In this document: positions 3,729-61,397 of the stretch, one piece after another | Layout of the letters: the number at the start of each line of letters is the position of its first letter | How positions within the stretch are numbered: position 1 is the stretch's first letter | IMG/VR virus record: IMGVR_UViG_3300032272_000006 | Span: 1-64,000 of that record | DNA length: 64,000 nucleotides | Direction: 5' to 3' (one strand) | Origin: a virus | Lineage: Duplodnaviria; Caudoviricetes | Made by a program: the position numbers and the translations under genes | The notes under the pieces: generated by a model | Told to the model about the DNA's origin: nothing | Seen by the model: the letters and a program-made list of their open reading frames with translations, nothing else | The model's database searches: none

Positions 3729-5070
3729 AGTGACTGAACGCATCACCATGGACGTCCTCAGGTCCTTAGCCAAGGCCGACGCGAAGGAATGGCTTGACTC
3801 ACTCACCCAGGACGAAGTAGAAGCCTTGTTCAAGGACTGGTCGTTCATGGCACGCGGTGAGCAGTTAGCCCCTGCAGGAGACTGGGCGAATTGGATTTAC
3901 TTGGCAGGCCGTGGCGCGGGCAAGACGCGCACAGGAGCGGAGTGGGTACGGTCACAGGTCAAGCAAGGGTTCATGCGCGGAGGCCTCATTGCTCCGACGG
4001 CAGGCGACGTTCGAGACGTCATGGTGGAGGGCGAGTCGGGCATCTTGGCTATATCGTTCGCCAATGACCTCGACGACAAGGGCCGAGTCATGGGCAAGCC
4101 CCTCTACGAGCCGTCGAAGAGGCGCCTTACCTGGATGAACGGTGCACAGTGCGCCCTATACTCAGCAGACGAGCCGGAACGTCTTCGTGGTCCCCAGCAC
4201 GAGTACCTTTGGGCGGATGAGCTATGCGCTTGGCGTCGTCCTGAGACATGGGACCTTGCCATGTTCGGTTTGCGCCTGGGCAAGAATCCTCAATCGTTCA
4301 TCTCGACGACACCGAAACCCAAGAAGATCATCATCGACCTTATGAAGGATCCGTCCACCGTGACGACGCGCGGGACGACCTACGACAACCGAGCCAACCT
4401 CGCAGGCAAGTTCTTCGATCAGGTGGTGAAGAAGTACGAAGGCACTCGCCTCGGTAAGCAGGAACTGATGGGCATCTTGCTCGAGGAAGCGGAAGGCGCC
4501 TTGTGGTCGAGGCCCAATCTCGACGAAACCCGTTTAAACAAGCTCCCAGGAGGTGGCTTCTACTTCAAGCGCATTGCGGTCGCCGTAGACCCCGCGATCA
4601 CAGCCAAGAGCACCTCGGATGAGACAGGCATCACCGTTGCAGGCCTCGGCTCAGACGACCATGGCTACGTCCTCGCGGATTACTCGGGACGATACAGTCC
4701 CGCGGATTGGGCGAAGAAGGTAGACATGGCCTGGAAGATGTGGCAGGCGGACGTCGTCATTGCGGAAGGCAATCAGGGCGGGGAGATGGTCAAGCATACG
4801 ATCCAGACCCAGAATAAGAACATCAACGTCCAGATCGTCCACGCCTCACGAGGCAAAGCAGCACGGGCCGAGCCGGTCGCGGCCTTGTTCGAACAAAAGC
4901 GTTGCCACCTCGTTGGGAACTTTAACGAGATGGAGGACCAGCTCTGCGTCTGGGAGCCTTTGTCAGGTGACGAGTCGCCCGACCGCCTCGATTCCGTGGT
5001 ATGGGGCCTGACCGCGTTGATGATCGGCAAGGGTGAAGTCGGTCAAGGTGTGATCAAAGGAGCCTACTGA
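3718..5070 (+). CDS. terL: Terminase large subunit
   Basis: Walker A GRGAGKT, Walker B WADE, nuclease VAVDPA...DETGI and DRLDS motifs. Confidence 0.95.
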   Translation: MAAEVTERITMDVLRSLAKADAKEWLDSLTQDEVEALFKDWSFMARGEQLAPAGDWANWIYLAGRGAGKTRTGAEWVRSQVKQGFMRGGLIAPTAGDVRDVMVEGESGILAISFANDLDDKGRVMGKPLYEPSKRRLTWMNGAQCALYSADEPERLRGPQHEYLWADELCAWRRPETWDLAMFGLRLGKNPQSFISTTPKPKKIIIDLMKDPSTVTTRGTTYDNRANLAGKFFDQVVKKYEGTRLGKQELMGILLEEAEGALWSRPNLDETRLNKLPGGGFYFKRIAVAVDPAITAKSTSDETGITVAGLGSDDHGYVLADYSGRYSPADWAKKVDMAWKMWQADVVIAEGNQGGEMVKHTIQTQNKNINVQIVHASRGKAARAEPVAALFEQKRCHLVGNFNEMEDQLCVWEPLSGDESPDRLDSVVWGLTALMIGKGEVGQGVIKGAY

Positions 5071-5175
5071 GACCTAGGAACGAAATCGACATCCACGACA
5101 CCAGTCGCTATAGTGGTCGTGAGGTGACCGGCGCAAGCGCAGGACTTCATAGGGCCTCCGATCAAGGAGGTAACC

Positions 5176-5589
5176 ATGAGGACCAGAGCGGAGCGTCGGT
5201 CACCTGACCCGCAACGAATTAACCCGGAGCCCGATATGCCCAAACACTTCGACATGATCACAGCCGGTGGATACTTTCCAGCATCCGGCAAGAACACGAT
5301 CCGCAAGGTAGCGGGCAAGTATGCCGGCATGAAGCCGGGCGACACCGTGACCATGACCTACTGCGACCGCGTCGAGAACGGTATTGCAGTCGATCAATTC
5401 GCGATTGAGGAACTGACCGTCGCAGCAGTCGCCCATGCCTCATTCAATCGCATCATTGCCCTGCACGTCGAAGAGAACCACGCGGTCGGGTGTGGGCACA
5501 GCGAGTCATCCATCCTCGACCTCCTGACTGATATCTACGACGTTCAGGACGGCGACGAGGAACAGTTTCTGGCGATCTATTTCGCCTGA
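5176..5589 (+). CDS. ASCH/PUA-like domain protein
   Basis: GKNTIRK...KPGDTV motif resembling ASCH GxKxxT/ExR; two possible starts (5176, 5236). Confidence 0.6.
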   Translation: MRTRAERRSPDPQRINPEPDMPKHFDMITAGGYFPASGKNTIRKVAGKYAGMKPGDTVTMTYCDRVENGIAVDQFAIEELTVAAVAHASFNRIIALHVEENHAVGCGHSESSILDLLTDIYDVQDGDEEQFLAIYFA

Positions 5590-5597
5590 CCCAGGTT

Positions 5598-5709: not shown

Positions 5710-5785
5710 CGAGGAGTAGCTCAGCAGGTAGAGCACTTGGTCGATAACCGAGCGGTCGCGGGTTCGAGTCCCGCCTCCTCAACCA
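5710..5785 (+). tRNA. tRNA-Ile(GAT), atypical (C1:A72 mismatch, C33)
   Basis: 76-nt cloverleaf: GCTC/GAGC D stem, CTTGG-TCGATAA-CCGAG anticodon arm, GCGGG-TTCGAGT-CCCGC T arm, encoded CCA. Confidence 0.9.
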
Positions 5786-7069: not shown

Positions 7070-7099
7070 TCAATTCGTTTAAACGTAGGCCCGAGGATC

Positions 7100-8570: not shown

Positions 8571-8975
8571 ATGACTCGTGACGACGTAGTAGCCGGATTC
8601 GACGCGCTCCTGGAAACAGAGCGCGCTGATGCGTTTAAACAAGGCCGAAGCAAAGGCAGTCAGGATGCTGCTCAGCATGTTCAAAGCGAACTCGCCAAGA
8701 AGAAGTTTGAGCTGATCGACCAAGGCAAAGCACAAGGCCTCAACGAGGCGCAGCCCCTTATCGACGCCGCTCGAGAGGCGGGACGTGTCCAAGGCGTCGA
8801 GGACGGTCGTCAAAGTGCAGAGATGACCGCAGACAAGGTAGCGATGCGGCAGGCTTATAACGAAGGCAAGCAAGCTGGGTACCAAGACGGCTTCAAGATC
8901 GGCCGTGGTGAAGGTTACCGTGCTGGCTGGAACGACGCGGTCAACTCGCCGCCCAGTTCTCACAAACCCAAGTAG
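8571..8975 (+). CDS. GxxxG-repeat helical protein
   Basis: Repeats such as YNEGKQAGYQDGFKIGRGEGYRAG. Confidence 0.7.
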   Translation: MTRDDVVAGFDALLETERADAFKQGRSKGSQDAAQHVQSELAKKKFELIDQGKAQGLNEAQPLIDAAREAGRVQGVEDGRQSAEMTADKVAMRQAYNEGKQAGYQDGFKIGRGEGYRAGWNDAVNSPPSSHKPK

Positions 8976-8982: not shown

Positions 8983-9126
8983 ATGGCTAAGAAATCAGAA
9001 GCAAGCGTAGCGGGTCCCAATCCGAAGAATCGGCATCGCCGCACGTCGGTTGGGAACTCACCGAACACCCGCCCGACGAACAAGAGCAAGCGGCGCACGT
9101 TTAAACGCAGTCGTGGTCAAGGGTAA
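8983..9126 (+). CDS. Small basic protein
   Basis: ATG 8983 after TAGGA; K/R-rich, ends KRSRGQG as in small basic phage proteins. Confidence 0.65.
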   Translation: MAKKSEASVAGPNPKNRHRRTSVGNSPNTRPTNKSKRRTFKRSRGQG

Positions 9127-13810: not shown

Positions 13811-14560
13811 ATGCCGGAGTCGCAGCAGAAGAAAAGACAGAAGAAGCGCATCGTTGAAAGCACCCGGGAGAAGATCGAACCGCTAAACAAACACCAAGCC
13901 ATCTACCTCGACATGCTCAAAGAGGCAGAGTGTGTTGCCGCCATCGGGCCCGCTGGAACGGGGAAGACATTTCTCGCCTGCTCACACGCCGCCCACCTTC
14001 TTGCGACACGCAAGACAGAAAAAATCCTCCTCACCCGTCCGACGATTGGCGTAGCCAATAGGACCCTCGGCTTCCTGCCCGGGCGCATCGAGCAAAAGAT
14101 GGAGCCATGGGCCCGTCCACTCGTCGATGCGTTTAAACGCATCCTAGGCGGGAACCAAGTCACGAACCTCCTTGCCAATAAGACAATCGAAGTCGGGGCC
14201 CTCGAGCATATGCGCGGGTTGACTTTCGACGATGCGGTGATGATCATTGACGAGGGCCAGAACACTTCCGTCCTCGAGATGAAGGCTTTTCTCACTCGAA
14301 TTGGAGCCAGATCCCGGGTCGTGGTATGCGGCGACGTAAGTCAGTCCGATCTTGGCGGCGAGAATGGGCTCTCCGCGGTCGTGGCTTCGATTAAGAAGGG
14401 ATTGGTACCAAGCGCCCAGTTAATGGAGTTCGATCACGACGACGTAGTTCGCTCGGAGCTGTGCGCACAGTGGGCGCGAGCATTTGACGTACTCGCGCTA
14501 CCGTCGATTGTTCAACCGGGAGTTCGTGGGACGCCGAGACGCAGTCAGGCGATGCCGTAG
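13811..14560 (+). CDS. phoH: PhoH-family ATPase
   Basis: GPAGTGKT, LGFLPG, HMRGLTF, IDEGQN, GDVSQSD. Confidence 0.95.
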   Translation: MPESQQKKRQKKRIVESTREKIEPLNKHQAIYLDMLKEAECVAAIGPAGTGKTFLACSHAAHLLATRKTEKILLTRPTIGVANRTLGFLPGRIEQKMEPWARPLVDAFKRILGGNQVTNLLANKTIEVGALEHMRGLTFDDAVMIIDEGQNTSVLEMKAFLTRIGARSRVVVCGDVSQSDLGGENGLSAVVASIKKGLVPSAQLMEFDHDDVVRSELCAQWARAFDVLALPSIVQPGVRGTPRRSQAMP

Positions 14561-15489: not shown

Positions 15490-15519
15490 CTTATAAGTCA
15501 GTTATACCGTCCATGTCAA
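15490..15519 (-). promoter_or_regulatory. Promoter with operator-like TATAAGTCAGTTATA (15492-15506)
   Basis: TTGACA-18-TATAAG on minus strand; perfect operator TATAAGTCACTTATA nearby at 15552-15566. Confidence 0.7.
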
Positions 15520-15675
15520 TACCTAATTTGATCAGGGAAAAATGCACGAGATATAAGTCACTTATACTCAGCATGCTTGATGCCTAACCGACTTATGATC
15601 ATACTAGCCCTCGAACGTTTAAACGAGGTGGCCTCGTCTGCGTTCTAGGCAGAGCCGAAACCAAGGAGCGATAAT

Positions 15676-16491
15676 ATGCCATTGATGAAAGTGAAAGACG
15701 CCGAGGGCAATGACATTGAAGTGGATGTTCCACTCGATGCCTCAGTCCCCGAAATCAAATCACTGGTCGACGAAGCAGTAGCGGCAGCGACCAAAGGGCT
15801 TTCTTCGAACCGGGACGAAATCCTGACGGAGAAAAAAGGCCTTCAAGCGAAGTTGGACGAGCTGGGCAAGCAGTGGGAGGGATTGGATCCCGCCGTGGTC
15901 AAAAATCTCGTTGATCGAATGAACAACGACGAAGAGACCAAGCTGATTGCCGAAGGGAAGATCGACGAAGTGGTCGAAAAGCGGGTAGCCGCGATGAAGA
16001 CCGATCTCGAATCTCGCCTGGAAGCAGCGACCGAGAAGCTGGCGACGCTGGAAGGTACGAATGGGACGTTGTCCGACAAGGTGAAGAATCTCGTGATTGA
16101 CGGGATGGTGCGCCAGGCCGGCAGCGAGTTGAAACTTCTACCCACGGCGATTGAGGACGCGATTGTCCGAGCCAAGGGTCGGTTCCAACTCGACGAGAAC
16201 GACAACCCAGTGGCTCGTGACGAACATGGCACGTTGCTAATTGGTAAGGACGGCAAGAACCCGTTGAAGCCAGTCGAATGGCTCGAGGGCATGAAGGAGC
16301 AGGCACCGCATTGGTTCCCCACTCCGTCAGGTGCTGGAGCTGGTGGCGGATCGGGGTCGGGCAACGGCAACCCGTTTACTTTGTCACGCTCGGAGGCTCG
16401 GGATCCCCAGGCTTACCGGACGGCGAAGGACGCGGCTGCCAAAGCAGGTCAACCGCTGCAGATCGTCGATGACGCTGCCGCGGGAGGCTGA
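15676..16491 (+). CDS. Capsid scaffolding protein
   Basis: Coiled-coil, PHWFPTPSGAGAGGG C-terminus; directly upstream of MCP. Confidence 0.85.
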   Translation: MPLMKVKDAEGNDIEVDVPLDASVPEIKSLVDEAVAAATKGLSSNRDEILTEKKGLQAKLDELGKQWEGLDPAVVKNLVDRMNNDEETKLIAEGKIDEVVEKRVAAMKTDLESRLEAATEKLATLEGTNGTLSDKVKNLVIDGMVRQAGSELKLLPTAIEDAIVRAKGRFQLDENDNPVARDEHGTLLIGKDGKNPLKPVEWLEGMKEQAPHWFPTPSGAGAGGGSGSGNGNPFTLSRSEARDPQAYRTAKDAAAKAGQPLQIVDDAAAGG

Positions 16492-16589
16492 GGCACTCTC
16501 GAAACGTCGCCAAGGTTGCGCTCGTCGTATACTAAGGTGGCAAAAGAACCGCGCGACGAGCGCATAAACCTTGAGGAAGGACCAAGACC

Positions 16590-17810
16590 ATGGCTAACGT
16601 ACTCGGCAACTACAATCCGACTTTCTTCGCCAACGAGGCGCTCATCCAGCTTTTCAAAGCACTTGGAATGGCTGGCCGAGTTCACCGAGGCGCCGAAGAA
16701 GAGCGGAATTCCGCAGGCCGCGAATTGGGCGACACGATCAACATTCGCCGGCCGTCTCACTTCACCGCGCAGACCCACGTTCCGGGTACCGGCACGACCG
16801 ATCAGGACGTAGTCGGGCAGAACGTTCAGATCTCGCTCAACAACCACCAGGAAGTCAAGTTCGCCTTGACTGACCGTGAACTCGCCTACTCCTCGGAACG
16901 CATCATCGACGAGCACATCTCGCCTGCAGCGTATGCCCTGGCCGACAAGATCGACCAGGACCTTCATGCACTGGGCGCGACGGTGGGCCCGAAGAGCACG
17001 CTGACCGGTTCGGTGGGCGCAAACTTCATCACCAACCCTCGCGCGGTACTTCGTCAGAACGAAGCGCCGATGGACAACAACGTCCATTACCTGGTCGATA
17101 CCGGCATGGAAAATTCCTTCCTTCAGCTCGGCATCTTCCACGAGGCGCAGATTACCGGCCAAGGCGGCAATACCGATGCCTTGCAGAACGGTAGCCTGGG
17201 ACGCCGGTTCGGCGTTGAGGTCTTCACCACGCAGAATGCGGATGTGTCCGTCGCGGCCCTGTCCTCGACGATCACGGCGTCTGCTGCGACCGGTGACAAC
17301 CTCATGGCAGTGGTCGGTGACACGGCAGCCAATGTCTCGAGCCTCTCGCTCGATGGCGGCTCGCTGGTCGAGACCGCGCAGATCGGTGATACGTTCACGA
17401 TTGCCGGCGATACCACGACCTACATTCTGACCGCCAATATGACGTTGGTGGCCGGTGCAGGCACCGCGACGTTCTACCCCGCCCTGCGGACGAACGTCTT
17501 GGACAACGCGGTCGTGACCTTCGACCTCCTGTCCGCGACTCAGGAAGCCACTCACTTGCGGAACCTGATGTTCCACCGCAACGCCTTCGCTCTCGCGTTT
17601 GCTCCGCTGCCCATGACGGGTGACGGCGCCGGTGCGCAGATCGACACTGTGACCGATCCGATTACCGGCCTCAGTGTTCGTGCCCGTATGTTCTACGACG
17701 GGGACACGGCGACCAACAAGATCGCGCTCGATGCGCTGTATGGCACCCAGGTCCTTGACGGTCAGTTGGCCGTTCGGGTCGTGCGCGCCACCACCATCGC
17801 GCCGGTCTGA
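16590..17810 (+). CDS. Major capsid protein (P22 coat-like) with Ig-like insertion
   Basis: GDTINIRRP, FHRNAFALA, DALYG motifs; 406 aa. Confidence 0.9.
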   Translation: MANVLGNYNPTFFANEALIQLFKALGMAGRVHRGAEEERNSAGRELGDTINIRRPSHFTAQTHVPGTGTTDQDVVGQNVQISLNNHQEVKFALTDRELAYSSERIIDEHISPAAYALADKIDQDLHALGATVGPKSTLTGSVGANFITNPRAVLRQNEAPMDNNVHYLVDTGMENSFLQLGIFHEAQITGQGGNTDALQNGSLGRRFGVEVFTTQNADVSVAALSSTITASAATGDNLMAVVGDTAANVSSLSLDGGSLVETAQIGDTFTIAGDTTTYILTANMTLVAGAGTATFYPALRTNVLDNAVVTFDLLSATQEATHLRNLMFHRNAFALAFAPLPMTGDGAGAQIDTVTDPITGLSVRARMFYDGDTATNKIALDALYGTQVLDGQLAVRVVRATTIAPV

Positions 17811-17824
17811 GCCTAAGCGATAAC

Positions 17825-17846
17825 GGAGGGCCCTTCGGGGCCCTCC
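17825..17846 (+). terminator. Hairpin after MCP
   Basis: GGAGGGCCC-TTCG-GGGCCCTCC. Confidence 0.8.
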
Positions 17847-17889
17847 TGATCGTTTTCACCGCAACCTCGAAGAAGAAAGGCCCGAACTC

Positions 17890-18195
17890 ATGGCTACAGC
17901 AAAACGCAAGCCCACCGTCCACATCGTCAATCCCAAGGATCCGTCTGATCCTGCCCCGTGGATCGCGAACGTGGACGACGTGGCACTGAAAGGTTGGACC
18001 CTCTGGGCCGACCGTCACGATCCGAAACTCGCCGCCGACGTTGAGAAAGCGGCCGAGGTCGAGGTCGAGAAAGTTGAGTCCGACGAGAAGGGCCCCGAAG
18101 CCCCCAAGGACAACAAGACCGACGACAAGCCGGCCGAAGTGAAAGACGGTTCCGCCGTCGATCCGAAAGACGTCAAAAAGGCGCCCGGTAAATAA
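17890..18195 (+). CDS. Charged low-complexity hypothetical protein
   Basis: K/E/D-rich C-terminus. Confidence 0.7.
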   Translation: MATAKRKPTVHIVNPKDPSDPAPWIANVDDVALKGWTLWADRHDPKLAADVEKAAEVEVEKVESDEKGPEAPKDNKTDDKPAEVKDGSAVDPKDVKKAPGK

Positions 18196-18230
18196 GAAGA
18201 GCCGTAAGGCTCCCCTCCCGTTGTGAACTT

Positions 18231-18264
18231 TAGGCCCCGGATTAAAACCCCGGGGCCTATTTTT
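18231..18264 (+). terminator. Rho-independent terminator, paralog of 54499-54530
   Basis: TAGGCCCCGG-ATTAAAAC-CCGGGGCCTA then T-run. Confidence 0.8.
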
Positions 18265-18324
18265 ATGCTTCACACCGACCGGCGAATGTCTTAATATGTT
18301 GCAACCACTGAAGGTGAGTTTACT

Positions 18325-18645
18325 ATGGAAGCCCTCGCAATCTCATGGCCTGCTGCCGTCGCTATTATTGCGTCGACCATCGCTATCACTGTAGGAGCAA
18401 TTAGGATCATGGGCCAGGGTAAGGACACCATCACGGTCGGAAGTTTGAAGAAGGATCATGCCGCACTCAACGAGCGAGTGCGCGGTGTCGAAACGTCGAT
18501 GGCAAAAATGGAGTCCGACTTGTCCGGTGTGATCACAACTCAGATCAAGGATCTGAAGAATGACGTCCAACGCCTAGACGGTAAGATGGACACCATGGTA
18601 AAGGAAGTCATCAACGCTCTAGCATCCCTCAAAAATAAGGATTAA
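18325..18645 (+). CDS. Membrane-anchored coiled-coil protein
   Basis: One N-terminal TM helix and heptad repeats. Confidence 0.7.
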   Translation: MEALAISWPAAVAIIASTIAITVGAIRIMGQGKDTITVGSLKKDHAALNERVRGVETSMAKMESDLSGVITTQIKDLKNDVQRLDGKMDTMVKEVINALASLKNKD

Positions 18646-18647
18646 AC

Positions 18648-20288
18648 ATGGCAGGAGCTGCACCGCCGGCTCTCACGGAGGCAGACCTTCGCGAGACACA
18701 CCGCGTCTTTATGTTGATGGGTGGCTCAGTACGAGGCACCTCAAAATTTATTGGAATCAGTCGAGCGTCAGTCAGGAAGCGTCTCGACAAAGCACAGACC
18801 GAACTCGGTCTCGAATGGAAGGCCGATCTTGTTGGCGGACGGATCGAGCCTCGCAAGGCGACGAAAAAGAAGCTACCTGCCAAGAATTCAGTCGCCCATT
18901 ACATCATCACATCCGCCCAGAACAACACGACCGCGAACTACGCCTTCTGGGACAACCTCCTTGCCTACGCGAAGCACCTCGACGCCGAGATCCTCGTCTC
19001 GCAGTTCACCTACAACAAGACACGGTATGGGCGAAAGTCAGTCAAGCCGGGCTCCGAGCCGACGGCGGACGACGTTGCAGATCTCTGGTACGATGATGTC
19101 TTCGACGGATACATTGCCAACGACCCAATCGAATTGGCGCCCATGCTCGTCTACTGCGGTGAGCAAAACACTTTGCCTACCGACGTGCGCCCACTCTCCG
19201 GCCTCGAGACGTACACAGGCGCGAAGTCAGGCATATTTCCTCATGCCAAGATGGCCCTCACGAGCGTCCCGTCTCTGAAGGAGCACGGCGCAAAGTTCAA
19301 CTACACGACGGGCACGGCAACGGCTCGAAATTACATCCAGAAAAAGACGGGCCTCAAAGCCGAATTCCATCACACCTATGGCGCCTTGCACGTCGAAGTC
19401 GATCACGATGGCAACTGGTTCGTTCGCCAACTCAACGCGACCGACGACGGCGCCTTCCAAGACCTGGACGTGATCGTTGACCGGAAGAAGGTAACGACCG
19501 GCAATCGCGTCGAAGGTATCAATTGGGGCGACGTTCACCGCGAACAGATCGACCCAGTTGTCCGCGCGATGAACTGGGGCGGCGGTGCCAATTGCATCAT
19601 CGACGAACTGCGACCCAAGTACCAGTTCATGCACGACACGGTCGACTTCTATCGACGCAATCACCACGCCCGCGGCAACGCTCATAAGAATTTCGCGCTG
19701 TGGGTCAAAGGTACCGAGAGCGTCGAGGAGGAAATGCTCAACGTCGCCACCTTCATGCGCGACGAGGCGAGTCGGGACTTCTGTAAGATGGTGGTCGTCG
19801 ATTCCAACCACGACAACGCACTGCTAAAATGGCTGCGCGAAGGCGACTACCGGAACGATCCTGTCAACGCATTGTTCTACCTTCGAAGTCAGACGGCCGT
19901 TTACGAAGCCATCGCGTCCCAGGATGCGAACTTCCACATCGTCGAGCACGTCCTGCAAAGCCAAGGCGTTCCTAAGAAGGTGACGTTCCTTCGGGACGAT
20001 GACTCCTTCGTTATCGCGGGATCTATCGAGTGCGGCATGCACGGGCACATAGGACCGAACGGCGCACGAGGTATGCCGCAGAACCTTTCCCGTATGGGCA
20101 AGAAAGCGAACACCGGTCACACGCATTCCGCACAGATCATAGACGGCATGTATGTTGCTGGCACTTGTTCATTGCTAAATCTCGACTATAATACAGGTCC
20201 ATCTTCTTGGTCCCATTCGCATGTCGTCACATACCCGAACGGCAAGCGCGCAATCATTACCGTCTACAACGGGAAGTGGCGGGCCTAA
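18648..20288 (+). CDS. Metallophosphoesterase-fold protein resembling T5 A1, with N-terminal HTH
   Basis: ITSAQNNT; WGDVH, SNHD, HGH, GHTH metal motifs; YPNGKR C-terminus. Confidence 0.7.
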   Translation: MAGAAPPALTEADLRETHRVFMLMGGSVRGTSKFIGISRASVRKRLDKAQTELGLEWKADLVGGRIEPRKATKKKLPAKNSVAHYIITSAQNNTTANYAFWDNLLAYAKHLDAEILVSQFTYNKTRYGRKSVKPGSEPTADDVADLWYDDVFDGYIANDPIELAPMLVYCGEQNTLPTDVRPLSGLETYTGAKSGIFPHAKMALTSVPSLKEHGAKFNYTTGTATARNYIQKKTGLKAEFHHTYGALHVEVDHDGNWFVRQLNATDDGAFQDLDVIVDRKKVTTGNRVEGINWGDVHREQIDPVVRAMNWGGGANCIIDELRPKYQFMHDTVDFYRRNHHARGNAHKNFALWVKGTESVEEEMLNVATFMRDEASRDFCKMVVVDSNHDNALLKWLREGDYRNDPVNALFYLRSQTAVYEAIASQDANFHIVEHVLQSQGVPKKVTFLRDDDSFVIAGSIECGMHGHIGPNGARGMPQNLSRMGKKANTGHTHSAQIIDGMYVAGTCSLLNLDYNTGPSSWSHSHVVTYPNGKRAIITVYNGKWRA

Positions 20289-20307
20289 CGTTTAAACGGA
20301 GTGCCCC

Positions 20308-40138: not shown

Positions 40139-40167
40139 TGATCATCAACGAAGCAATGGAGACGATC

Positions 40168-40925: not shown

Positions 40926-40930
40926 TCACT

Positions 40931-41684: not shown

Positions 41685-41739
41685 GGTTTTCTTAACGACT
41701 TTGTGCTACTATCAATCATCGAAACAACGGAGACGAACC
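41681..41739 (+). promoter_or_regulatory. CtrA box (41681-41696) and early promoter
   Basis: TTAA-GGTTTTC-TTAAC, TGTGCTACTATCAATCATCGAAAC. Confidence 0.85.
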
Positions 41740-42054
41740 ATGCACGTAGCCCCTTATATCCTCCCGACCGGCGAGAAAATGAATCCGAGCAACCCAGTTG
41801 ACGCGACATACTACGACGAAGGCCAGGTCGCCTACATCATGCAGAAAGAAGACGCGACGAAGCCGACTCGGGTTTTCACCAGCTTCGGCGAACTCGGTGG
41901 CAAATGGGCAATCGGCGAAGTGATCGAATGCCGGCACGACCAGGATAATAGCCTCCTCGGCATTATGACCGTCGTCGGCACGGTCGTCTACAAGACGGGC
42001 GAAAAGGAGGGCAACGTTCCCGACCGCAAGCTCGCCCATGCGGTTTTCAAATAG
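41740..42054 (+). CDS. Early hypothetical protein
   Basis: GGAG RBS. Confidence 0.75.
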   Translation: MHVAPYILPTGEKMNPSNPVDATYYDEGQVAYIMQKEDATKPTRVFTSFGELGGKWAIGEVIECRHDQDNSLLGIMTVVGTVVYKTGEKEGNVPDRKLAHAVFK

Positions 42055-42066: not shown

Positions 42067-42098
42067 TAAACGGGCGTCACTTCGGTGGCGCCCGTTTA
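42067..42098. terminator. Bidirectional terminator hairpin
   Basis: TTAAACGGGCGTCAC-TTCG-GTGGCGCCCGTTTAA between convergent genes. Confidence 0.8.
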
Positions 42099-43982: not shown

Positions 43983-43994
43983 GTCGCTTCCCTT

Positions 43995-45269: not shown

Positions 45270-45517
45270 TATCGACCCACTCGAATTTCGGTCGCAGTCG
45301 TCCCAGTAGCAAGAATTTTCTTTACGCGCATGGGGTGCCACACGCCGACTGCAAGACCAATAAGGGTGACTGAAACGGAATCATTCTCGAAGAGAACGGC
45401 TAGGGTTCCCTCCCCGCCAATGTAGACTCCGCGGGTGGTCTCAAGCAGTGTACTATCGTTGGGCGTGATACTTTCTCCAGATTGAACGCCAAAGACAGTG
45501 AATTCTGGTTCAGCCAT
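45269..45517 (-). CDS. Head spike base protein (RcGTA Rcc01079-like)
   Basis: ITPNDST..TRGVYIGGEGTL...P.RV.KILATGTTAT motif. Confidence 0.85.
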   Translation of the reverse strand: MAEPEFTVFGVQSGESITPNDSTLLETTRGVYIGGEGTLAVLFENDSVSVTLIGLAVGVWHPMRVKKILATGTTATEIRVGR

Positions 45518-46660: not shown

Positions 46661-48402
46661 TGGACATCTCGGTACTCGGCGACTGGGGCGTCATTGACGG
46701 CGCCACCGGCAAGGTGCGCAAGCGCCTTGCTGAGGACTTGCAGACGGAAACCGAAATGGTCGGCAACCGTCTCAAGTTTCGCCCGTCGCGCACGTCACTG
46801 ACCTACCTCGCCCATACGGCAGGAGCGGAGTTCGCGCCTAATTGCCGTACCGCGTGGGGTCACTTTTTCAAGAACCGAGCCGTCACCAAGGGCGTCTTCG
46901 AGTTCAAGACGAAGCCATACGAGCACCAGGAAGAGACGTTCGACCTGATCAAGGATCGAACTTACTACGCTCTCGAATGGGAGATGGGCCTCGGCAAGAC
47001 GAAGTGTGCCCTTGACGTGTCGGCCTACAAGTTCCTCAATCACCAGATAGATATGGTGATCGTTGTCACCGACAAAGGCGTCCACGAGAATTGGGTCGTG
47101 CGCGAGATTCCCGTCCATCTTGCCGTTGACCCGAAGCGAGTCAAGACGGCTTTCTGGAACATCAATCGAGTGGAAGCCGGTATGCGCGGCATGGTCGAGT
47201 TCGAAGGCTTGTCCATTGCGACGATGAACTTCTCAGTCGTGGCGCGAAAGAAGGGCGAAGCGTTTATCCGGCGAGCATGCGCGGAGAGACGGGTGCTGCT
47301 TATCGTGGACGAGTCCGACCGTATTGCCACGCCCAGCGCTGCTCAAACCAAAGCGCTCCTGCGCTATGGCAAGTTAGCATCCGCCCGTCTGATCATGACC
47401 GGAACGCCAATTGTCAATTCACCACTCGATGCCTGGGCACCTTTCAATTTCCTGAATCCACAGATTCTGGGTCAAGACAAGTTCTGGGCGTTTAAACATC
47501 GTTACTCCGTGTTCCAGGAACTACCCGGTATCACGCATATGGTATGGCGCAAGGACAAGAAAACAGGACGATCAATCCAGGTCGAGGAACCAGTCAAGGT
47601 CGTCGTTGGTCATAAGAACCTCGACGAACTCAAGCGACGCATCGACCCGCACCGGTCTCGCTTGCTCAAAGAGGACTGCCTCGACCTGCCCGAAAAGACG
47701 TACCGTCGGCACCCGTTCGAATTGCCCGACGAGTACAAGAAGGCCTACAAGTCGCTGAAGAACGACTTGATGATCGAACTCGATGGCGACCGGCGCGTCA
47801 CAGCCCCGCTTGCCTTGACGAAATTGCTACGCCTGCAGCAGTTGGTTTGTGGATTCGTCGTGCCTGAAGACGCAGGCATGGGCGACTCGGATTTGATCGG
47901 TGAGGCGTTTTCAGAAGTCAATCCTCGCATCGAAGCCCTTTCCCAAGTCGTGGATCGGGTTCAAGGTAAAGCATTGATCTGGGCGCCGTGGCGCTACTCC
48001 CTCGCCGAGATCGAGAAATGCCTTTCAGAGAAGTATGGTGCCGACTCGGTCGTCACATACTCGGGCGCGACCTCGACGGCAGACCGAACTTACGCCATCA
48101 ATGCCTTCCAGGATCCCGACTCGCCTGTGCGCTGGTTTATCGGGCAGCAACAGGCTGGTGGCCGAGGACTCACGCTGACACAGGCGCGCGACGTGATATA
48201 CTACGCGAACACGTACTCCTACGCACTACGCCTACAATCGGAGGACCGGGCGCATCGAATTGGACAGACGGGAACGGTGACCTATACCGACCTCGAAGCC
48301 ATATCAACGGTCGATGGTAAGATCATTCAGGCCCTGCTAGACAAGCAAGAGATTGCCTCGATGATCACCGGTGACCGCCTTAAAGAATGGTTGACCGATT
48401 AG
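46660..48402 (+). CDS. SNF2-family helicase
   Basis: EMGLGKT, VDESD, TGTPI, GLTLT, QSEDRAHRIGQ. Confidence 0.93.
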   Translation: MDISVLGDWGVIDGATGKVRKRLAEDLQTETEMVGNRLKFRPSRTSLTYLAHTAGAEFAPNCRTAWGHFFKNRAVTKGVFEFKTKPYEHQEETFDLIKDRTYYALEWEMGLGKTKCALDVSAYKFLNHQIDMVIVVTDKGVHENWVVREIPVHLAVDPKRVKTAFWNINRVEAGMRGMVEFEGLSIATMNFSVVARKKGEAFIRRACAERRVLLIVDESDRIATPSAAQTKALLRYGKLASARLIMTGTPIVNSPLDAWAPFNFLNPQILGQDKFWAFKHRYSVFQELPGITHMVWRKDKKTGRSIQVEEPVKVVVGHKNLDELKRRIDPHRSRLLKEDCLDLPEKTYRRHPFELPDEYKKAYKSLKNDLMIELDGDRRVTAPLALTKLLRLQQLVCGFVVPEDAGMGDSDLIGEAFSEVNPRIEALSQVVDRVQGKALIWAPWRYSLAEIEKCLSEKYGADSVVTYSGATSTADRTYAINAFQDPDSPVRWFIGQQQAGGRGLTLTQARDVIYYANTYSYALRLQSEDRAHRIGQTGTVTYTDLEAISTVDGKIIQALLDKQEIASMITGDRLKEWLTD

Positions 48403-51867: not shown

Positions 51868-53340
51868 ATGCTAACGCTCGTCTTGGGAGGGCCAGGTTGT
51901 GGTAAGACCACCGCTTTGTTGAATATCATCGACGACCTGCTCTCCCGAGGCGTGGCGCCTAACAAGATTGCCTACCTGACATTTACGAAGAAGGCCGCTC
52001 AGGAAGGCTTGACTCGAGCCATGGAGAAGTTCAATTTCGAGGCGGACGATCTCCCATACTTTCGCACGCTGCACTCTCTCGCATTCCAGCAACTTGCCCT
52101 CGATCCCAACATGGTCATGACCGAGACGAATTGGCGCGAGTTTGGCGCCGTCGTCGGGTTGCAATTGACGGCCCCTCCTGAGGGTGAAATTGGCGGCAAG
52201 CCGGGATCACAATTTCTAAGCGCTGTCCAATTCGCGCGACTTCGTCAGAGGCCCCTCCGGTCGGTTTGCCAGGATCTCAAACTCGACCTCACCGAGGCCG
52301 AGTACATCGAAAGTCATCTCGCCGCGTTTAAACGGGATCGAGGGTTGGTCGACTTCACCGACATGCTCGAAGCATTCCGAACCGAAGGCGTCGTCCCGCC
52401 CGTCGACTATTTGATCGTTGACGAGGGACAAGACCTCTCAACGCTGCAATGGCAAATCGTCGACCGCATAGCGAAGCGTGTTGACGATATGTGGGTTGCT
52501 GGTGACGATGACCAGGCGATCTACGAATGGGCGGGCGCCGACGTTGAGCGGTTCCTGAAACTCGAAGGCAAGAAGATCGTCCTGCCTATATCGTATCGAC
52601 TCAAAACCAGCGTCTTCGACGTGACGCAAGGAATTGCTCACACGATCCGAGACAGGTTCGACAAGGATTGGAAGCCGCATGCTGACGGAGGCGAGATTGA
52701 CCGCGTCAATGGAATTGAGCATGTAAACCTCGACGAGGGATCTTGGTACCTCCTCGCCCGCAATCATTACCTCCTAGAACCCTTGCGTCGGCATCTGCGT
52801 GACAAAGGATACTCCTACCTCGAGCACGAACAGTCCTCGACTGACAACGCGAACGTCCGAGCCATGATCCATTGGGAGGCATTGCGCAAAGGCGAGAAGA
52901 TCAACGTAGAAACCCTGAAAGAAATCTGGAATCGCCTCAAGAGAGACGCAGTAGAATCGTCTCGCCTCGACATTGACCCGGAGGCAATCGTCTCTCTTGC
53001 GGATCTCCGTGGGCACTACGGCTTGTTGACGGACGCGCCTTGGTTCGAAGTGATGCGGTTCAACGATTGGGAGATTGAGTACTACCGGGCATGTAGACAG
53101 CGTGGCGAGAAGCTGCTTGCACGTCCGCGGATCACGCTATCGACCATCCACGGTGTCAAAGGTGGGCAGGCCGACAACGTTTTCTTAATGAGCGACATGG
53201 CGCCCAAATCATACGAGGCACTGGTGCGCAAGAAATCGGACGAAGAAAAGCGGGTGTTCTACGTTGCGACATCTCGCGCGAAGGAGCGCTTGATAATCAA
53301 CAACCCCGTCTCGCCTCGATACTTTGACTTAACGCAATAG
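51868..53340 (+). CDS. UvrD/Rep-like SF1 helicase
   Basis: GGPGCGKT, VDEGQD, GDDDQAIY, STIHGVKG, YVATSRA. Confidence 0.92.
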   Translation: MLTLVLGGPGCGKTTALLNIIDDLLSRGVAPNKIAYLTFTKKAAQEGLTRAMEKFNFEADDLPYFRTLHSLAFQQLALDPNMVMTETNWREFGAVVGLQLTAPPEGEIGGKPGSQFLSAVQFARLRQRPLRSVCQDLKLDLTEAEYIESHLAAFKRDRGLVDFTDMLEAFRTEGVVPPVDYLIVDEGQDLSTLQWQIVDRIAKRVDDMWVAGDDDQAIYEWAGADVERFLKLEGKKIVLPISYRLKTSVFDVTQGIAHTIRDRFDKDWKPHADGGEIDRVNGIEHVNLDEGSWYLLARNHYLLEPLRRHLRDKGYSYLEHEQSSTDNANVRAMIHWEALRKGEKINVETLKEIWNRLKRDAVESSRLDIDPEAIVSLADLRGHYGLLTDAPWFEVMRFNDWEIEYYRACRQRGEKLLARPRITLSTIHGVKGGQADNVFLMSDMAPKSYEALVRKKSDEEKRVFYVATSRAKERLIINNPVSPRYFDLTQ

Positions 53341-54615: not shown

Positions 54616-55335
54616 ATGTATATCGTAACTCAGAATTCAAAAGGCGTTGCCGCAGTTTTCACCGCGAACGAAGACGAGGCAAACTTGTTCAACAACGAGC
54701 CGGAGCTTTTCGCGGACGACCTCAGCGGTTGGGTGATCAGCGAGGCGGCTGATCTCGAGGCAAACTTGTCCAAAGGTCAGATGGTCGCCATTTATAATTC
54801 ACTGGCGGGTGAGAATCTGGTCAAGTTCCAGAACAAGGCGATGGGCGCCCAGCGCACAATGCCCTTGGTCGAGCGCAACGCCAAGCCGTTCGATGAACTC
54901 GGTGCCAAGCCGGTTTCGACGGATGACGGCACGACCTTGGTCGATCATCTCGACCACATCGTTGTCCAAGACAAGCCGAAGTCGCGTGGTCGCTCGGACA
55001 AGGGCATCCACAACATCCCGCCCAAAGATAGGGCGGTGGCTTGCCGTGCTGGAACGAAGCAGCAGGCTCTCATTGACGCTCTCGCGAAGGGTGCGACGAT
55101 GGCCGACCTGCTCGACGCGACGTCCGCGAAGAACGGCGGCAAGGATTGGACGGAGGGTTCTGTCAAGTCGGGCTTCTACGAAGACGTCAACACCAAGAAG
55201 GGTTATGGCGTCCGGACGGAAGTTGTCGTCGAAGGCGATCCTTCGACCTACAAGTACTTCCTCGTGTACCCTGAAGGCGCCAGCGCACCGTTGGCACCTA
55301 CCTCGAAAAAGAAAGTGGAGGATACCGACTCCTAA
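54616..55335 (+). CDS. Putative winged-helix DNA-binding protein (DUF3489-like C-terminus)
   Basis: RAGTKQQALIDALAKGATMADL motif. Confidence 0.6.
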   Translation: MYIVTQNSKGVAAVFTANEDEANLFNNEPELFADDLSGWVISEAADLEANLSKGQMVAIYNSLAGENLVKFQNKAMGAQRTMPLVERNAKPFDELGAKPVSTDDGTTLVDHLDHIVVQDKPKSRGRSDKGIHNIPPKDRAVACRAGTKQQALIDALAKGATMADLLDATSAKNGGKDWTEGSVKSGFYEDVNTKKGYGVRTEVVVEGDPSTYKYFLVYPEGASAPLAPTSKKKVEDTDS

Positions 55336-55463
55336 GATCGTTGTTGCGCCAAACGGTTCGGCGCGCTAATATGTGATGGACGGCCCGGGCCTTCGTGCCC
55401 GGGTCATTCATTAACGCCTCACCGTTTAAACACCTGTGATGGTTCAACCAGGAGACAAAAACC

Positions 55464-56318
55464 ATGGCGAAAGCGACTGTTGTCCTTTCCGGAGGACAGG
55501 ATTCTACGACCTGCCTCTATTGGGCACTAAATCAAACCTTCGACGAAGTAGCCGCGGTCACGTTTGACTACGGTCAACGACACCGCACCGAGATCGACTC
55601 GGCAATCAAGATCGCTCGGATGGCAGGCATTGCCAAGCACGTCGTCCTCGAGCTGTCACCCGACACCCTGCGCTCAGATTCGCCTCTCACGTCAGGCAAC
55701 GACCTCGAGCAGTACGACGACCACGCATCCTTGCCCGGCGGTCTCGAGAAGACCTTCGTGCCGATGCGCAACCAAACCTTCCTGACAATCGCCGCAGCCG
55801 AGGCCTACCGCAACGGGCACCAAATGCTGATCACCGGCACCTGCGAAGAGGACTTCGGAGGCTATCCTGATTGCCGCCGCGTCTTCATCGACGCGCTCGA
55901 GGCTGCTTGCAACCTAGGCACGTTCACGGGCAAGGACGGGGCGCTCGGCAAGTTGACGATCTCCACGCCTCTCATGACGTTGACGAAGGCCCAGAGCGTT
56001 GACCTCGCGATCCGGCTCGGTTGGGATTGCTGGAAAGCACTTGCCTACAGTCATACGGCCTACGACGGCGCCTTCCCGCCCATCGGTCACGATCACGCTA
56101 CCTTGCTGCGAGCCAAAGGGTTCGAGGAGCACGGCACGCCTGACCCGCTGGTCATTCGCGCAATCGTCGAGGCCGGCATGGAAATCCCGGAGTCCGAAAA
56201 TTACGACGTAGTGTCGGGCCTCCTCAACGATCCTTCCTTCCACAACGAGAACGAGATGTCCTTGCTTCTCGCCGTATGGGAAGAGATGCTAAACGGGTTG
56301 GGTGCGACCGATGGTTGA
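55464..56318 (+). CDS. queC: 7-cyano-7-deazaguanine (preQ0) synthase
   Basis: SGGQDS, FDYGQRH, FVPMRN, YPDC; C-terminal Zn cysteines absent. Confidence 0.92.
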
Positions 56319-58746: not shown

Positions 58747-58983
58747 ATGTTTGGTGCAGTCAAAGAAAAGATTGAGGAGCGCAAGCGAGTGCTGGCGCAT
58801 CTCATGACTTCACTCGAGAAGTGGAGAGCGTCTGACCGTTTAAACGCGGAGCCTGGCACGCCTCGAAGTCACCTTCTGACAGACGAGGAAAAGGAACTCG
58901 CCCACGCCTACGATCTGCTCCAGAACTTAATTGGGCAGGTCCAGAAAGAGAAGCCCGGCGGGAACGTAGACATTTCCTGCTGA
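58747..58983 (+). CDS. Small helical hypothetical protein
   Basis: GGAGG RBS. Confidence 0.7.
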   Translation: MFGAVKEKIEERKRVLAHLMTSLEKWRASDRLNAEPGTPRSHLLTDEEKELAHAYDLLQNLIGQVQKEKPGGNVDISC

Positions 58984-59012
58984 TATATAACGCATCAAAG
59001 GACCCGAATGGT

Positions 59013-60053
59013 ATGTTCTTCTATATGAGCGGCACGCCCCGCAACGACGTTCTGCAACGCCAGGAAAATAGCCTTTGCTCGCATCGCCTATTCTCACTTC
59101 ATGGTGACTACCAGCGAGCGGTTCACAAATGGCTTGACGACGTTCTGGAAGATCCTTCGCACCCCTACCCTCGTTCGATCATGCTCGATTCCGGCGCCTT
59201 CACGGCGTGGAACGCGGGCGGCGAGGTAACGGTGGACGAAGTGTTCGACTCCTACAGCCGGTTCGAGGAAAAGTGCGGCGACCTGTTCGATGAAATCTGG
59301 ATGGTCAACCTCGATAAGATCCCAGGCAAGCGAGGCGAAGATCCTACCGTCCAAGAGATCAACGATGCCTTGAGGATCTCGGATATCAACTACAAGAAAT
59401 TGGTCGACCGTTTCGGTGAACGAATCTTGCCGGTGTATCATCAAGGCGAGGATACAGGGCGGCTTCTCGAACTTGCTAGCATGGCAAAGTACATTTGTGT
59501 CTCGCCTCGAAATGACATGCCCGAGTTGAAACGAGCCAAGTGGGCGGGTGAGAAACACAAAGCCCTCGACAAGCACGCGCCTGGGACGATGACTCACGGT
59601 CTCGCGACGACGGGCAACAACATGCTACGAGACGTGAAGTGGACGTCCGTCGATTCCGCGGCCTGGATCCTTCACGCTGGTTTTGGTAAGGTTGACATTT
59701 TCGAAGGCGACCGGTATCGGAATTACTTCGTGTCGGATGATCCTCGCAAGGCCGGGTTGATGAACCAGCATTGGGGCGCCCAGATCAGCAACAACCCCGA
59801 GACAGGTGCTGTGGAAGTAGCCGTGCCCGAGGCGGTAGAGCGGGGTGGTAAATTGATTGGTCCTGGCATGCCTACGTCCCAGCGACTGCGCATCCGAGAA
59901 CGCATCGAGAAGTATGGCTTCAACACCGAGGAGATCGTCACAAACTCCCGGGCCCGGTCAATTGTCTGCATGGGCGAACTAGCTGACTATTGCCGCTGGG
60001 CAACAGAATACCAAAAACGAAAGACGCGGCAAGACGGCCTGGGTCTAGATTGA
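59013..60053 (+). CDS. dpdA: DNA 7-deazaguanine transglycosylase (DpdA, likely DpdA2-like)
   Basis: MLDSGAFTAW, NLDKIPG, PVYHQGE, THGL, SVDSAAW TGT-fold motifs; que context. Confidence 0.82.
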   Translation: MFFYMSGTPRNDVLQRQENSLCSHRLFSLHGDYQRAVHKWLDDVLEDPSHPYPRSIMLDSGAFTAWNAGGEVTVDEVFDSYSRFEEKCGDLFDEIWMVNLDKIPGKRGEDPTVQEINDALRISDINYKKLVDRFGERILPVYHQGEDTGRLLELASMAKYICVSPRNDMPELKRAKWAGEKHKALDKHAPGTMTHGLATTGNNMLRDVKWTSVDSAAWILHAGFGKVDIFEGDRYRNYFVSDDPRKAGLMNQHWGAQISNNPETGAVEVAVPEAVERGGKLIGPGMPTSQRLRIRERIEKYGFNTEEIVTNSRARSIVCMGELADYCRWATEYQKRKTRQDGLGLD

Positions 60054-60196
60054 TGGCGACGAAAAAGAAAGGCGTCCTTGCAACGTCAGGCGAATGGTGG
60101 AAGCACCTTCGTTGGACGAAACGATCCTTCTGGAAAAAGAACCGGCGGCTCGAGCGCAAGGCAGTACAGGAGTTGCGCGATGCAATGGACCGCTGA
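60053..60196 (+). CDS. 47-aa basic Trp-rich protein
   Basis: TGATG coupling with dpdA stop. Confidence 0.55.
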   Translation: MATKKKGVLATSGEWWKHLRWTKRSFWKKNRRLERKAVQELRDAMDR

Positions 60197-61397
60197 GCAA
60201 GAAGGCGCCCTGCAGGCCGTCGAGCATTGGTTCCGTAATAAGACGTCTCCCTCGTTCTACCTTGCGGGTTATGCCGGGACGGGCAAGACGACTCTCGCGC
60301 GTCACTTCGCTGAAAATTGCTCAGGCGTCGTCAAGTTCGCAGCGTTCACGGGCAAGGCCGCTTCCGTCTTGAGGAAGAAAGGTTGCCCCGGCGCAACGAC
60401 GATCCACTCGCTGATCTATCGACCAGTCGGTCAGACGAACGAGAAGCAGCGACGGTCGTTGGAAATCCTTATCGAGGTCGAGGAGAACAAAGACAAGGCC
60501 GACCGTGACCCGATGGTCGAGACGTGGCGCAAAGAACTTGCCGACCTCACCGCACGTTCGCGCGCCATGTTCGAACTGCGCAAGGAAGGCGAGACCGAGA
60601 TAATGGAAGCCGACTTGGTCATCATCGACGAATGCTCGACCGTCGATGTTAAGATGGGCGCTGACCTCGAAGGATTTGGCGTCCCGATCTTGTACCTCGG
60701 CGATCCTGGGCAGCTCCCGCCCGTCAATGGCAAAGGCCTGCTCGCGAAGCGTCGTCCCGACTATACCCTCGAGGAGATTCATCGCCAGGCGAAGGACTCG
60801 CCCATCATCTGGCTTGCCCACGAGATCAGGCAAGGCCGGAAGACGGCTTTTGGCTCGTTCGGAGACGGGCAAGTTGAAATTCTTAAGAAGCGCGAGTGGG
60901 ATTGGCAGCGCGCAATCGAATCCGATCAAATGATCTGCGGCATGAACAAGACGAGACGTCGTTTAAACGCAGGCGCCCGGGAGCGCCTTGGCTTCGATAA
61001 GCTCTACCCGCTGGTCGACGACAAACTGATCTGCCTCAACAACGACCACGACGAAGGCCTACTCAACGGCGTCACTTGCTCGATGCTTGCCGACTCGATC
61101 AAGAAAGGAAACCTGCTCGAGGCGCGTATCGACTACGAAGGCATGAGAATGCTCCACTACATCGACCCTGGGCACTTCGAGGAGAACTACCAGAAGCGTT
61201 TATCCTACCCAAAATACGACACCGTCCAGCACTTCGATTATGGCTACGCTATCACGGGGCACAAGTCGCAGGGGTCCCAGTGGCCGAGCATCGTCGTCTG
61301 TGACGATAAGATGAGGGCGGACGATGTTGTTCATAGACGGCAATGGCTCTATACTGTCGTCACAAGGGCCGAGGAAGGCCTAACCGTCTATGCCTGA
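60180..61397 (+). CDS. Dda/RecD-like SF1B helicase
   Basis: GYAGTGKT, AFTGKAA, TIHS, IDECS, GDPGQL, YAITGHKSQGSQW, YTVVTRA. Confidence 0.92.
   Translation: MQWTAEQEGALQAVEHWFRNKTSPSFYLAGYAGTGKTTLARHFAENCSGVVKFAAFTGKAASVLRKKGCPGATTIHSLIYRPVGQTNEKQRRSLEILIEVEENKDKADRDPMVETWRKELADLTARSRAMFELRKEGETEIMEADLVIIDECSTVDVKMGADLEGFGVPILYLGDPGQLPPVNGKGLLAKRRPDYTLEEIHRQAKDSPIIWLAHEIRQGRKTAFGSFGDGQVEILKKREWDWQRAIESDQMICGMNKTRRRLNAGARERLGFDKLYPLVDDKLICLNNDHDEGLLNGVTCSMLADSIKKGNLLEARIDYEGMRMLHYIDPGHFEENYQKRLSYPKYDTVQHFDYGYAITGHKSQGSQWPSIVVCDDKMRADDVVHRRQWLYTVVTRAEEGLTVYA

Follow-up and report, generated by a model that had tools for sequence, protein, structure and literature searches.

An 83,753-bp phage genome with 56.6% G+C (IMG/VR record IMGVR_UViG_3300032272_000006) contains, in its first 64 kb (a stretch called the window), an array of exact copies of a short palindromic word. 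The word, here the A-word, is GTTTAAAC as an 8-mer and CGTTTAAACG as a 10-mer; a variant carried by other phages is referred to as the C-word (GTTTACAC, CGTTTACACG). We show that the word is under selection at the level of DNA, that it is written into genes by means of rare synonymous codons, and that it co-occurs across phyla with the gene for a SprT-like protein, a candidate partner that may bind it. The genome is that of a Nanhaivirus-like siphophage, distantly related to Dinoroseobacter phages R5C and R26L and 'Pseudanabaena' phage Pan1 of that group; its best genes share ~70% nucleotide identity with theirs.

An earlier note on this DNA, made from the letters alone, had listed 20 exact copies of GTTTAAAC in the window, 15 of them extended to CGTTTAAACG, and we reproduced every copy with its position and its flanks (C.G at 15 copies, C.A at four, G.G at one). 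Dinucleotide shuffles of the window contained 0.53 ± 0.74 copies of the 8-mer (maximum 3), and the 10-mer was expected 0.06 times. Over the complete genome there are 25 copies of GTTTAAAC and 17 of CGTTTAAACG, which are its commonest 8-mer and 10-mer, and 25 of the 32 TTTAAA hexamers lie inside the word. The enrichment persisted in the checks that the note had proposed: Markov models of orders 1–3 predicted only 0.3–0.7 copies of GTTTAAAC, and a codon-aware shuffle, described below, did not remove the excess. Over-representation of the word was 38- to 800-fold above expectation (the HIP1-type criterion is at least 15-fold), at a density of ~1 per 3–7 kb in this phage and its relatives. A sequence logo of 78 sites from four genomes reads (G)CGTTTAAACG(C), and no general longer dyad symmetry was detected around the word in these sites.

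Selection acts on the DNA sequence itself. Long coding sequences (CDSs) hold nine copies, where a codon-aware synonymous shuffle predicts 0.28. The tripeptide R-L-N is spelled CGT-TTA-AAC at three of its four occurrences despite TTA accounting for 3.8% of Leu codons, and neither R-L-N nor F-K is over-frequent as a peptide. The proteome offers eight places at which the full 10-mer could be written synonymously ([SPTA]FKR or RLN[VADEG]); it is used at six, and both unused opportunities sit < 1 kb from another copy. When six genomes were pooled, one-mismatch neighbours of the word numbered 40 as against 43 expected, and this lack of enrichment indicates that recognition is all-or-none.

In the whole genome, 11 of the 25 copies are intragenic. 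The earlier note had put about 12 window copies in CDSs; we place ~8–9 in confident CDSs. One copy (33744) provides a stop codon. Non-coding DNA, which makes up ~11% of the genome, holds about half of the copies; these often closely follow a stop codon, precede a ribosome-binding site or occupy convergent gene ends or the loops of terminator-like hairpins. We read these non-coding and hairpin placements as the cheapest spots for a DNA site and not as evidence of a role in RNA.

The copies are also spread out, more evenly than by chance in most of the relatives tested. In five genomes the coefficient of variation of the gaps was 0.36–0.66 compared with ~0.92 for random placement, with P values for even spacing of 0.0001 (R26L), 0.003 (Pan1), 0.006 (the complete IMG/VR genome G002), 0.017 (R5C) and 0.019 (the window genome). 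Gaps more even than random point to a coverage function rather than gene-by-gene control. The absence of the word from the module at 42.1–45.5 kb, on which the note had remarked, is not significant, this stretch being only one mean gap long.

Conservation in relatives and a switch of the word

As the earlier note had suggested should be examined, the sites proved to be conserved in relatives. R5C has 17 copies of GTTTAAAC, R26L 20, Pan1 16, G002 10 and G003, another IMG/VR genome, 15, and fragments of two closer metagenomic relatives (L083 and L085) have three and two. In six of seven genomes no 8-mer is more over-represented than the word, and every TTTAAA of R26L and of Pan1 falls within it. 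Aligned sites were kept more often than background 8-mers in each comparison (6/9 vs 15.6%, 6/8 vs 34% and 4/6 vs 9%). Positions common to relatives include the queC leader, phoH, the N-terminus of the SF2 helicase and the promoter of the SprT-like gene. Many other copies have relocated, so what is conserved is copy number and spread, not place.

One relative differs. This is G016, a 58-kb IMG/VR contig that is 75% complete; a tree of capsid and tail tube places it within the clade, as sister to R5C and R26L (86/96). GTTTAAAC occurs in it just once, exactly at the −35 of the promoter for the SprT-like gene. At positions where its relatives have the word it keeps the peptide and uses common codons (GCC-TTC-AAG for A-F-K, CGC-CTG-AAC for R-L-N). 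It contains instead 11 copies of cGTTTACACg (0.12 expected), seven on the plus strand and four on the minus strand, with the C...G flanks of the relatives and with even spacing (P 0.009). G016 has thus switched its word to a one-letter variant rather than lost the system. Because this array is not palindromic, palindromy is not essential, and the argument for a dimeric reader is weakened. The earlier note had proposed a dedicated set of sites for a dimeric protein; the selected site set stands, spread for coverage and not tied to single genes, whereas the dimer finds no support in G016 or in three actinophages with non-palindromic arrays. Gene-content subtraction (outgroups G011 and G015; low-word G001 and G016) revealed no gene absence that accounts for the pattern.

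The G016 array bears on several other explanations. The word could be a transcription terminator or another RNA element (a hairpin loop, a processing site or a translational operator), and it does occupy the apex of terminator-like hairpins in three early cassettes, lies at convergent gene ends in several relatives and in places adjoins ribosome-binding sites. We regard this as extremely improbable. An asymmetric variant used in both orientations, as in G016 and the actinophages, could not serve as an RNA signal confined to one transcript strand; copies lie deep within long essential genes; no general extended dyad symmetry surrounds the 78 sites; and a hairpin loop is just a location where a palindromic DNA site costs nothing.

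A word without any reader might also spread neutrally or selfishly, for example through biased repair or mutational drive, as was once proposed for HIP1, which is likewise an exact 8-bp palindrome that has been written into genes (PMC5861425). This, too, is highly improbable: the number of one-mismatch neighbours matches expectation, conservation of the sites exceeds background and their spacing is more regular than chance would give, unused synonymous opportunities adjoin existing copies, and a sister lineage swapped its whole array to a one-letter variant with flanks and spacing unchanged. HIP1 itself, GCGATCGC of cyanobacterial chromosomes, is 15- to 300-fold over-represented and of unresolved function (PMC5861425, PMC4390886). 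It shares with the phage word the exact 8-bp palindrome, conservation inside and between open reading frames (ORFs) and a non-random spatial distribution. It differs in being cellular, in its two DNA methyltransferases and in its density of ~1 per kb; here the word belongs to a phage, no methyltransferase was found and there is a candidate partner. Pfam and PHROG scans of ~80 proteins, which covered all but a few small ORFs, identified no ParB, RHH protein or methyltransferase as a possible reader.

A host factor or defence system could read the word, for instance as a Chi-like exonuclease signal, through a nucleoid protein or through a restriction-type enzyme, with the array as an adaptation to the host. 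The even spacing recalls the logic of Chi, and within the covered part of G016 the change of word is not accounted for by any phage gene. Both Chi and the T5 nick sites resemble the array as short exact words valued for their distribution along DNA. The T5 nicks affect one strand, have a short GCGC-type consensus and are unevenly spaced. Chi, unlike our word, is asymmetric, oriented and abundant in the host chromosome. Five alphaproteobacterial genomes contained 1–23 copies of GTTTAAAC, fewer than of a composition-matched control, and among 301 alphaproteobacterial genomes, which do not include the actual hosts, CGTTTAAACG occurred 0–7 times per genome as against 17 times in the 84-kb phage. 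The word is therefore not a chromosome-wide host signal in the genomes searched, and a host Chi- or uptake-type signal was rejected, since host-class genomes are nearly devoid of it. Phages of Actinobacteria, Enterobacteria, Burkholderia and Alphaproteobacteria all carry words of this one family, a distribution that speaks for a reader encoded by the phage, and we consider a host reader very unlikely.

Among phage proteins, one of the candidate readers named in the earlier note was an XRE-family helix-turn-helix (HTH) protein (63 aa; gene at 38986–39177, minus strand). In this reading it would recognise the word, and the copies would serve as stoperator-like operators or roadblocks that silence transcription genome-wide. 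XRE homologues are present in all six word-rich genomes of the clade and in none of G001, G011 and G015, and the residues of the recognition helix are invariant. A copy of the word lies 22 bp upstream of the ATG and not, as the note had it, within the 5′ end of the gene; in R26L and in three metagenomic relatives (L176, L179 and L180) a copy does lie within codons 5–8. However, the recognition helix is identical in G016 despite the change of its word to GTTTACAC, the homologues are limited to the clade while the word recurs in unrelated phages, and there is no copy near the XRE gene in R5C, Pan1 or G002. All-or-none specificity over 8–10 bp and copies in essential genes would be unusual for a Cro-like operator, and R5C is described in its paper as lytic and as having neither integrase nor repressor (PMC5454422). 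We therefore consider the XRE protein distinctly unlikely as the reader. The two other proteins named in the note fared no better: the gene for the A1-like nuclease is absent from word-rich G003, and there was no match to DUF3489 among the ~80 scanned proteins.

The stoperators of Cluster A mycobacteriophages (L5 gp71, Bxb1 gp69) are 13–14 bp long, asymmetric, oriented with transcription and mostly intergenic, and are read by the HTH immunity repressor of temperate phages (PMC9283540, PMC6550527). They resemble the present array in that dozens of short exact words are distributed across a phage genome and read by a phage protein, with a copy at the promoter region of the reader, and in that word and protein can change together between lineages. 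They are unlike it in length (8–10 bp here), in symmetry (palindromic here, or a variant in both orientations) and in placement (11 of 25 copies intragenic here). Moreover, the phages here are reported to be lytic, the gene associated with the word is for a SprT-like metalloprotease, and the word is met again in phages of other bacterial phyla.

A SprT-like protein as candidate partner of the word

The SprT-like gene (HExxH and zinc ribbon) lies 5.8 kb past the window (genome 69847–70479; L082:5847–6479). It encodes a protein of 210 aa with an HExxH metalloprotease core and a C-terminal Cys4 zinc ribbon (CxC...CPxxC), and H97-E98-x-x-H101 is invariant in nine homologues from six host genera. 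The most conserved site of all is at its promoter: in the window genome, Pan1, R26L, G002 and G016 a copy of the word adjoins the −35, and R5C has one close by.

Homologues of the SprT-like protein with 34–45% identity are encoded by unrelated phages, and these contain the word as well. GTTTAAAC is present six times in Salmonella phage PT1 and seven times each in Burkholderia phage Mica and Klebsiella phage KA2-1 (controls 0–3), whereas GTTTACAC is present 22 times in Microbacterium phage Zeta1847, 27 times in Arthrobacter phage Tweety19 and 40 times in Streptomyces phage Intolerant (controls 0–3). The three actinophages use the C-word array in both orientations. In five of the six unrelated phages, a copy lies directly upstream of the SprT-like gene. 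Word enrichment was absent in six phages without the gene (G011, G015, RcRudolph, PhiJL001, Xoo-sp2 and Lacusarx). Counted by lineage, the word is enriched in six of seven with the gene and in none of six without it (Fisher P ~0.004).

We propose that CGTTTAAACG is a cis-acting word that the phage lineage writes into its own double-stranded chromosome, at one copy per ~3–4 kb, and that selection keeps there. Copies are placed in intergenic space or terminator loops where possible, and otherwise within genes by way of rare synonymous codons. The likeliest partner of the word is the SprT-like protein, to which we give an even chance; it would bind the word, probably through its zinc ribbon and not necessarily as a dimer, repress its own promoter and thereby be stationed every few kb on phage DNA only. 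Autoregulation would come from the copy at its own promoter, and the regular spacing of the copies would distribute the protein over the phage DNA and leave the host chromosome free of it.

The link between word and gene is associative only, a case of guilt by association, and a number of observations weigh against it. No alignment columns separate the proteins of A-word phages from those of C-word phages, and the G016 protein is nearly identical to that of its A-word sisters except for an F-to-L change in the ribbon. G001 has the SprT-like gene (54% identity) yet only six copies of the word, none flanked by C and G. Bordetella phage CN1 and Pseudomonas phage Psa21-HRN encode distant homologues and show no enrichment; in both, the match stops short of the ribbon. 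The G002 homologue (L070:13288–13857) contains one in-frame stop, either a sequencing error or a sign of a broken gene, yet 10 copies are kept in 67 kb, the lowest density in the word-rich group. A phage-like contig of a Ponticaulis metagenome-assembled genome (L167 and L168, G010:C7; 38.6 kb, 48% G+C), which resembles the window phage in its tape-measure only, has eight copies of GTTTAAAC as against ~0.7 expected; these lack the C and G flanks, and no SprT-like match was detected in the contig.

The assignment of the protein to the SprT family is weak. PF10263 was the top family for four of five homologues, at 12.9–18.6 bits (E 0.002–0.1) and so below its cut-off of 25.6. Foldseek with an AF2 model (pLDDT 70.8) returned no match at E ≤ 0.001; the weak rows were minigluzincins, IrrE, CapP and Wss1 at E 1.8. 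A profile search of solved structures found no match for the SprT-like alignment or for the nuclease alignment. The GenBank record of phage Mica cites an HHpred match to 6MDW, as the record's own annotation only.

An alternative is that the word is the target of an enzyme, either DpdA, which would insert a 7-deazaguanine at the flanking or first G as a self-mark, or a T5-like site-specific nickase. The exact, all-or-none specificity of the word is enzyme-like. DpdA and the preQ pathway are encoded in all members of the clade, and both queC and the word are missing from the outgroups G011, G015 and G012. In bacteria, the site of DpdA action lies within a palindrome, at a frequency of ~1 per 1000 nt, and ~0.1% of G is modified by several DpdA classes (PMC10164549, PMC10516641), a rate that fits the 50–100 G per genome that would be modified here. 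Few core proteins, however, are less well conserved than DpdA (38% identity between the window genome and R5C), and yet the word does not vary; G001, whose DpdA is closest to that of the window genome (53%), has hardly any copies. As for a nickase, the sole small PD-(D/E)XK nuclease found, a protein of 146 aa, has the Hjc/RecU Holliday-junction-resolvase fold and was dropped as a site-specific nuclease. An enzyme target is thus unlikely. A trio of genes resembling Pam3 gp32–34 was uninformative, as gp34 homologues are widespread in many kinds of phage.

What the SprT-like protein would do at the word is a separate matter. Our favoured, speculative guess is a DNA-tethered protease with an anti-defence role like that of plasmid ArdC. 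By this analogy, in what would be a widespread and so far undescribed phage system, a SprT-like DNA-dependent metalloprotease would be addressed to the phage chromosome by the word and would cut proteins that bind, crosslink to or translocate along it, for example restriction or defence enzymes; we put this forward tentatively, as possible and rather less than probable. Since the word is nearly absent from host DNA, such a protease would patrol phage DNA only, and word and reader would co-evolve between lineages. ArdC of plasmid R388 combines a DNA-binding part with a SprT/Wss1-type metalloprotease domain and protects incoming DNA from type I restriction (PMC7213743). The likeness is that of a mobile-element protein with such a domain, and the CN1 homologue (Bordetella phage) carries the annotation of an antirestriction protein. 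The DNA that ArdC binds, however, is single-stranded and no word is known for it; its N-terminal domain is different, no site array of it is known, and it is likened to the phage protein by analogy. Alternatively, the SprT-like protein could act at the word in global transcription.

The OB sites of KorB offer a further comparison. Plasmid RK2 has twelve identical 13-bp palindromes over 60 kb, or ~1 per 5 kb (PMC11790492). As in the phage, they are situated at promoters, far from promoters and inside genes, and KorB acts over distance; KorB is, however, a ParB-family CTPase clamp, and no ParB-like protein is among the ~80 proteins scanned here. Stoperators, KorB OB and HIP1 each fail at least one of the defining features tested here. 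The earlier note knew of no described system for the motif, and we likewise found no paper that describes the word in phages; those on R5C and Pan1 do not mention it.

Individual copies and other elements of the genome

Several copies of the word in the window lie within genes. The first is in terL (4532–4539; T-R-L-N-K as CGT-TTA-AAC, flank C..A). The full 10-mer in phoH (14131–14138; A-F-K-R) is at the centre of an 18-bp palindrome (14126–14143) that the earlier note had correctly described; the position is also occupied in R5C and Pan1, and G016 keeps the peptide, spelled GCC-TTC-AAG. Two tail genes contain full 10-mers, the one at 27424–29274 (27603–27610; S-F-K-R) and the gene of the 1345-aa tail protein (29884–29891; R-L-N-G, with the rare TTA codon). 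The copy at 33744–33751 (flank G..G) provides the TAA stop of gene 29712–33749, and the next ATG follows 2 bp on. In the SF2 helicase, the copy at 47490–47497 encodes A-F-K-H (flank C..A). Further full 10-mers are located in the replicative helicase gene 51868–53340 (52326–52333; A-F-K-R), in the small ORF 58747–58983 (58838–58845; R-L-N-A) and in a RecD/Dda-like helicase gene (60961–60968; R-L-N-A). The note had seen a weak hint of polarity in the imperfect flanks. Across four genomes we counted 15 C..A and three T..G; the bias is weak, as many of the copies are orthologous and coding constraints favour it.

Outside confident genes, full 10-mers are found in the intergenic DNA 16 bp ahead of the portal gene ATG at 7100 (7077–7084), in non-coding DNA 197 bp ahead of the ribonucleotide reductase gene (9099–9106), in a divergent control region 52 bp ahead of the scaffold gene (15617–15624) and 2 bp past the stop of the A1-like gene, where the copy immediately precedes the GGAG of the next gene (20290–20297). 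An uncertain small ORF contains the copy 64 bp past the portal stop codon (8633–8640; flank C..A). The 10-mer at 39199–39206 lies between the XRE gene (ATG at 39177, minus strand) and a perfect TTGACA-17-TATAAT promoter. Five more copies lie beyond the window, at genome positions 68023, 69804, 70700, 75687 and 81370. At the last of these (genome 81370–81449; L082:17370–17449), a tRNA gene begins with the final C of the word; the other tRNA, at window 5710–5782, has no word nearby.

Window positions 39500–41750 form an array of single-gene early cassettes with a TTAA-N7-TTAA (CtrA-type) box in the −35 region and TGCTACTAT at −10. Three of the four hairpins that separate the cassettes have the word in the loop. 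These are the terminator-like hairpin 39516–39547, with the full 10-mer at its apex (39529–39536) 16 bp ahead of an early promoter box; the hairpin past the stop of gene 40168–40386 and ahead of an early promoter (apex 10-mer at 40401–40408); and the terminator-like hairpin 40930–40957, also ahead of an early promoter (apex 10-mer at 40939–40946). The earlier note had reported the three near CtrA boxes, and we find them 16 bp ahead of TTAA-N7-TTAA/TTCA boxes. The fourth hairpin (40010–40035) has AATAAAAA instead. The 10-mer at 42094–42101 marks a convergent junction; it comes right after a GC hairpin and overlaps the stop of the minus-strand tail-spike gene. That gene belongs to a lower-GC module on the minus strand (42096–45517) for tail spike and fibre proteins (pectate-lyase-like N-terminus, PHROG tail proteins), which is probably a recently swapped host-recognition cassette.

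The conserved queC leader contains a copy 33 bp ahead of the ATG (55424–55431), at a position also occupied in R5C, Pan1, R26L, G002 and G001. In six genomes the leader (window 55330–55466) comprises a promoter, a GC hairpin, TTCATTCAT, the word and then CCTGTGGTGG..ACCAGGA..CCAC. It could fold as a pseudoknot over the ribosome-binding site, and it looks riboswitch-like, as might be expected before a preQ gene. An Rfam scan identified two tRNAs only and no riboswitch in the leader. G016 lacks the word here, and a T run comes after its hairpin.

A second repeated element consists of strong promoters (TTGACA, 17 bp, TTATA(C/G/A)) whose spacer contains a near-palindrome, ATAAC/GT-N3-4-CTTAT, and which are followed by a shared leader, CATCGAAACAA..GGAG. 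It occurs at window 486, 39251 and 54545, at genome 67817, 69834 and 72021 and on both strands at 15492–15566, and there are 6–19 copies per clade genome, including G001, which is without the XRE gene. Beyond the window, the genome encodes the Holliday-junction-resolvase-fold nuclease (L082:14194–14634), an RtcB RNA ligase (16035–17273), a GIY-YIG/I-TevI-type homing endonuclease (17468–18337) and MazZ/MazG-like dNTP pyrophosphohydrolases (18330–19354). Together with DpdA and the queC/D/E/F and folE genes, these predicted enzymes point to modified DNA and tRNA repair.

Meaning for phage chromosomes

If the link between the word and the SprT-like protein is true, a very common phage gene that is annotated as a SprT-like protease, with its role unknown, gains a testable DNA address. 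The array would offer a simple experimental handle, and the natural switch of the word in G016 provides a ready-made pair for swapping specificity. Word arrays of this kind could also account for part of the unexplained k-mer bias of phages. If true, the association would represent a new class of self-marking of the phage chromosome, one that shapes codon choice in essential genes in phages of both Actinobacteria and Proteobacteria.

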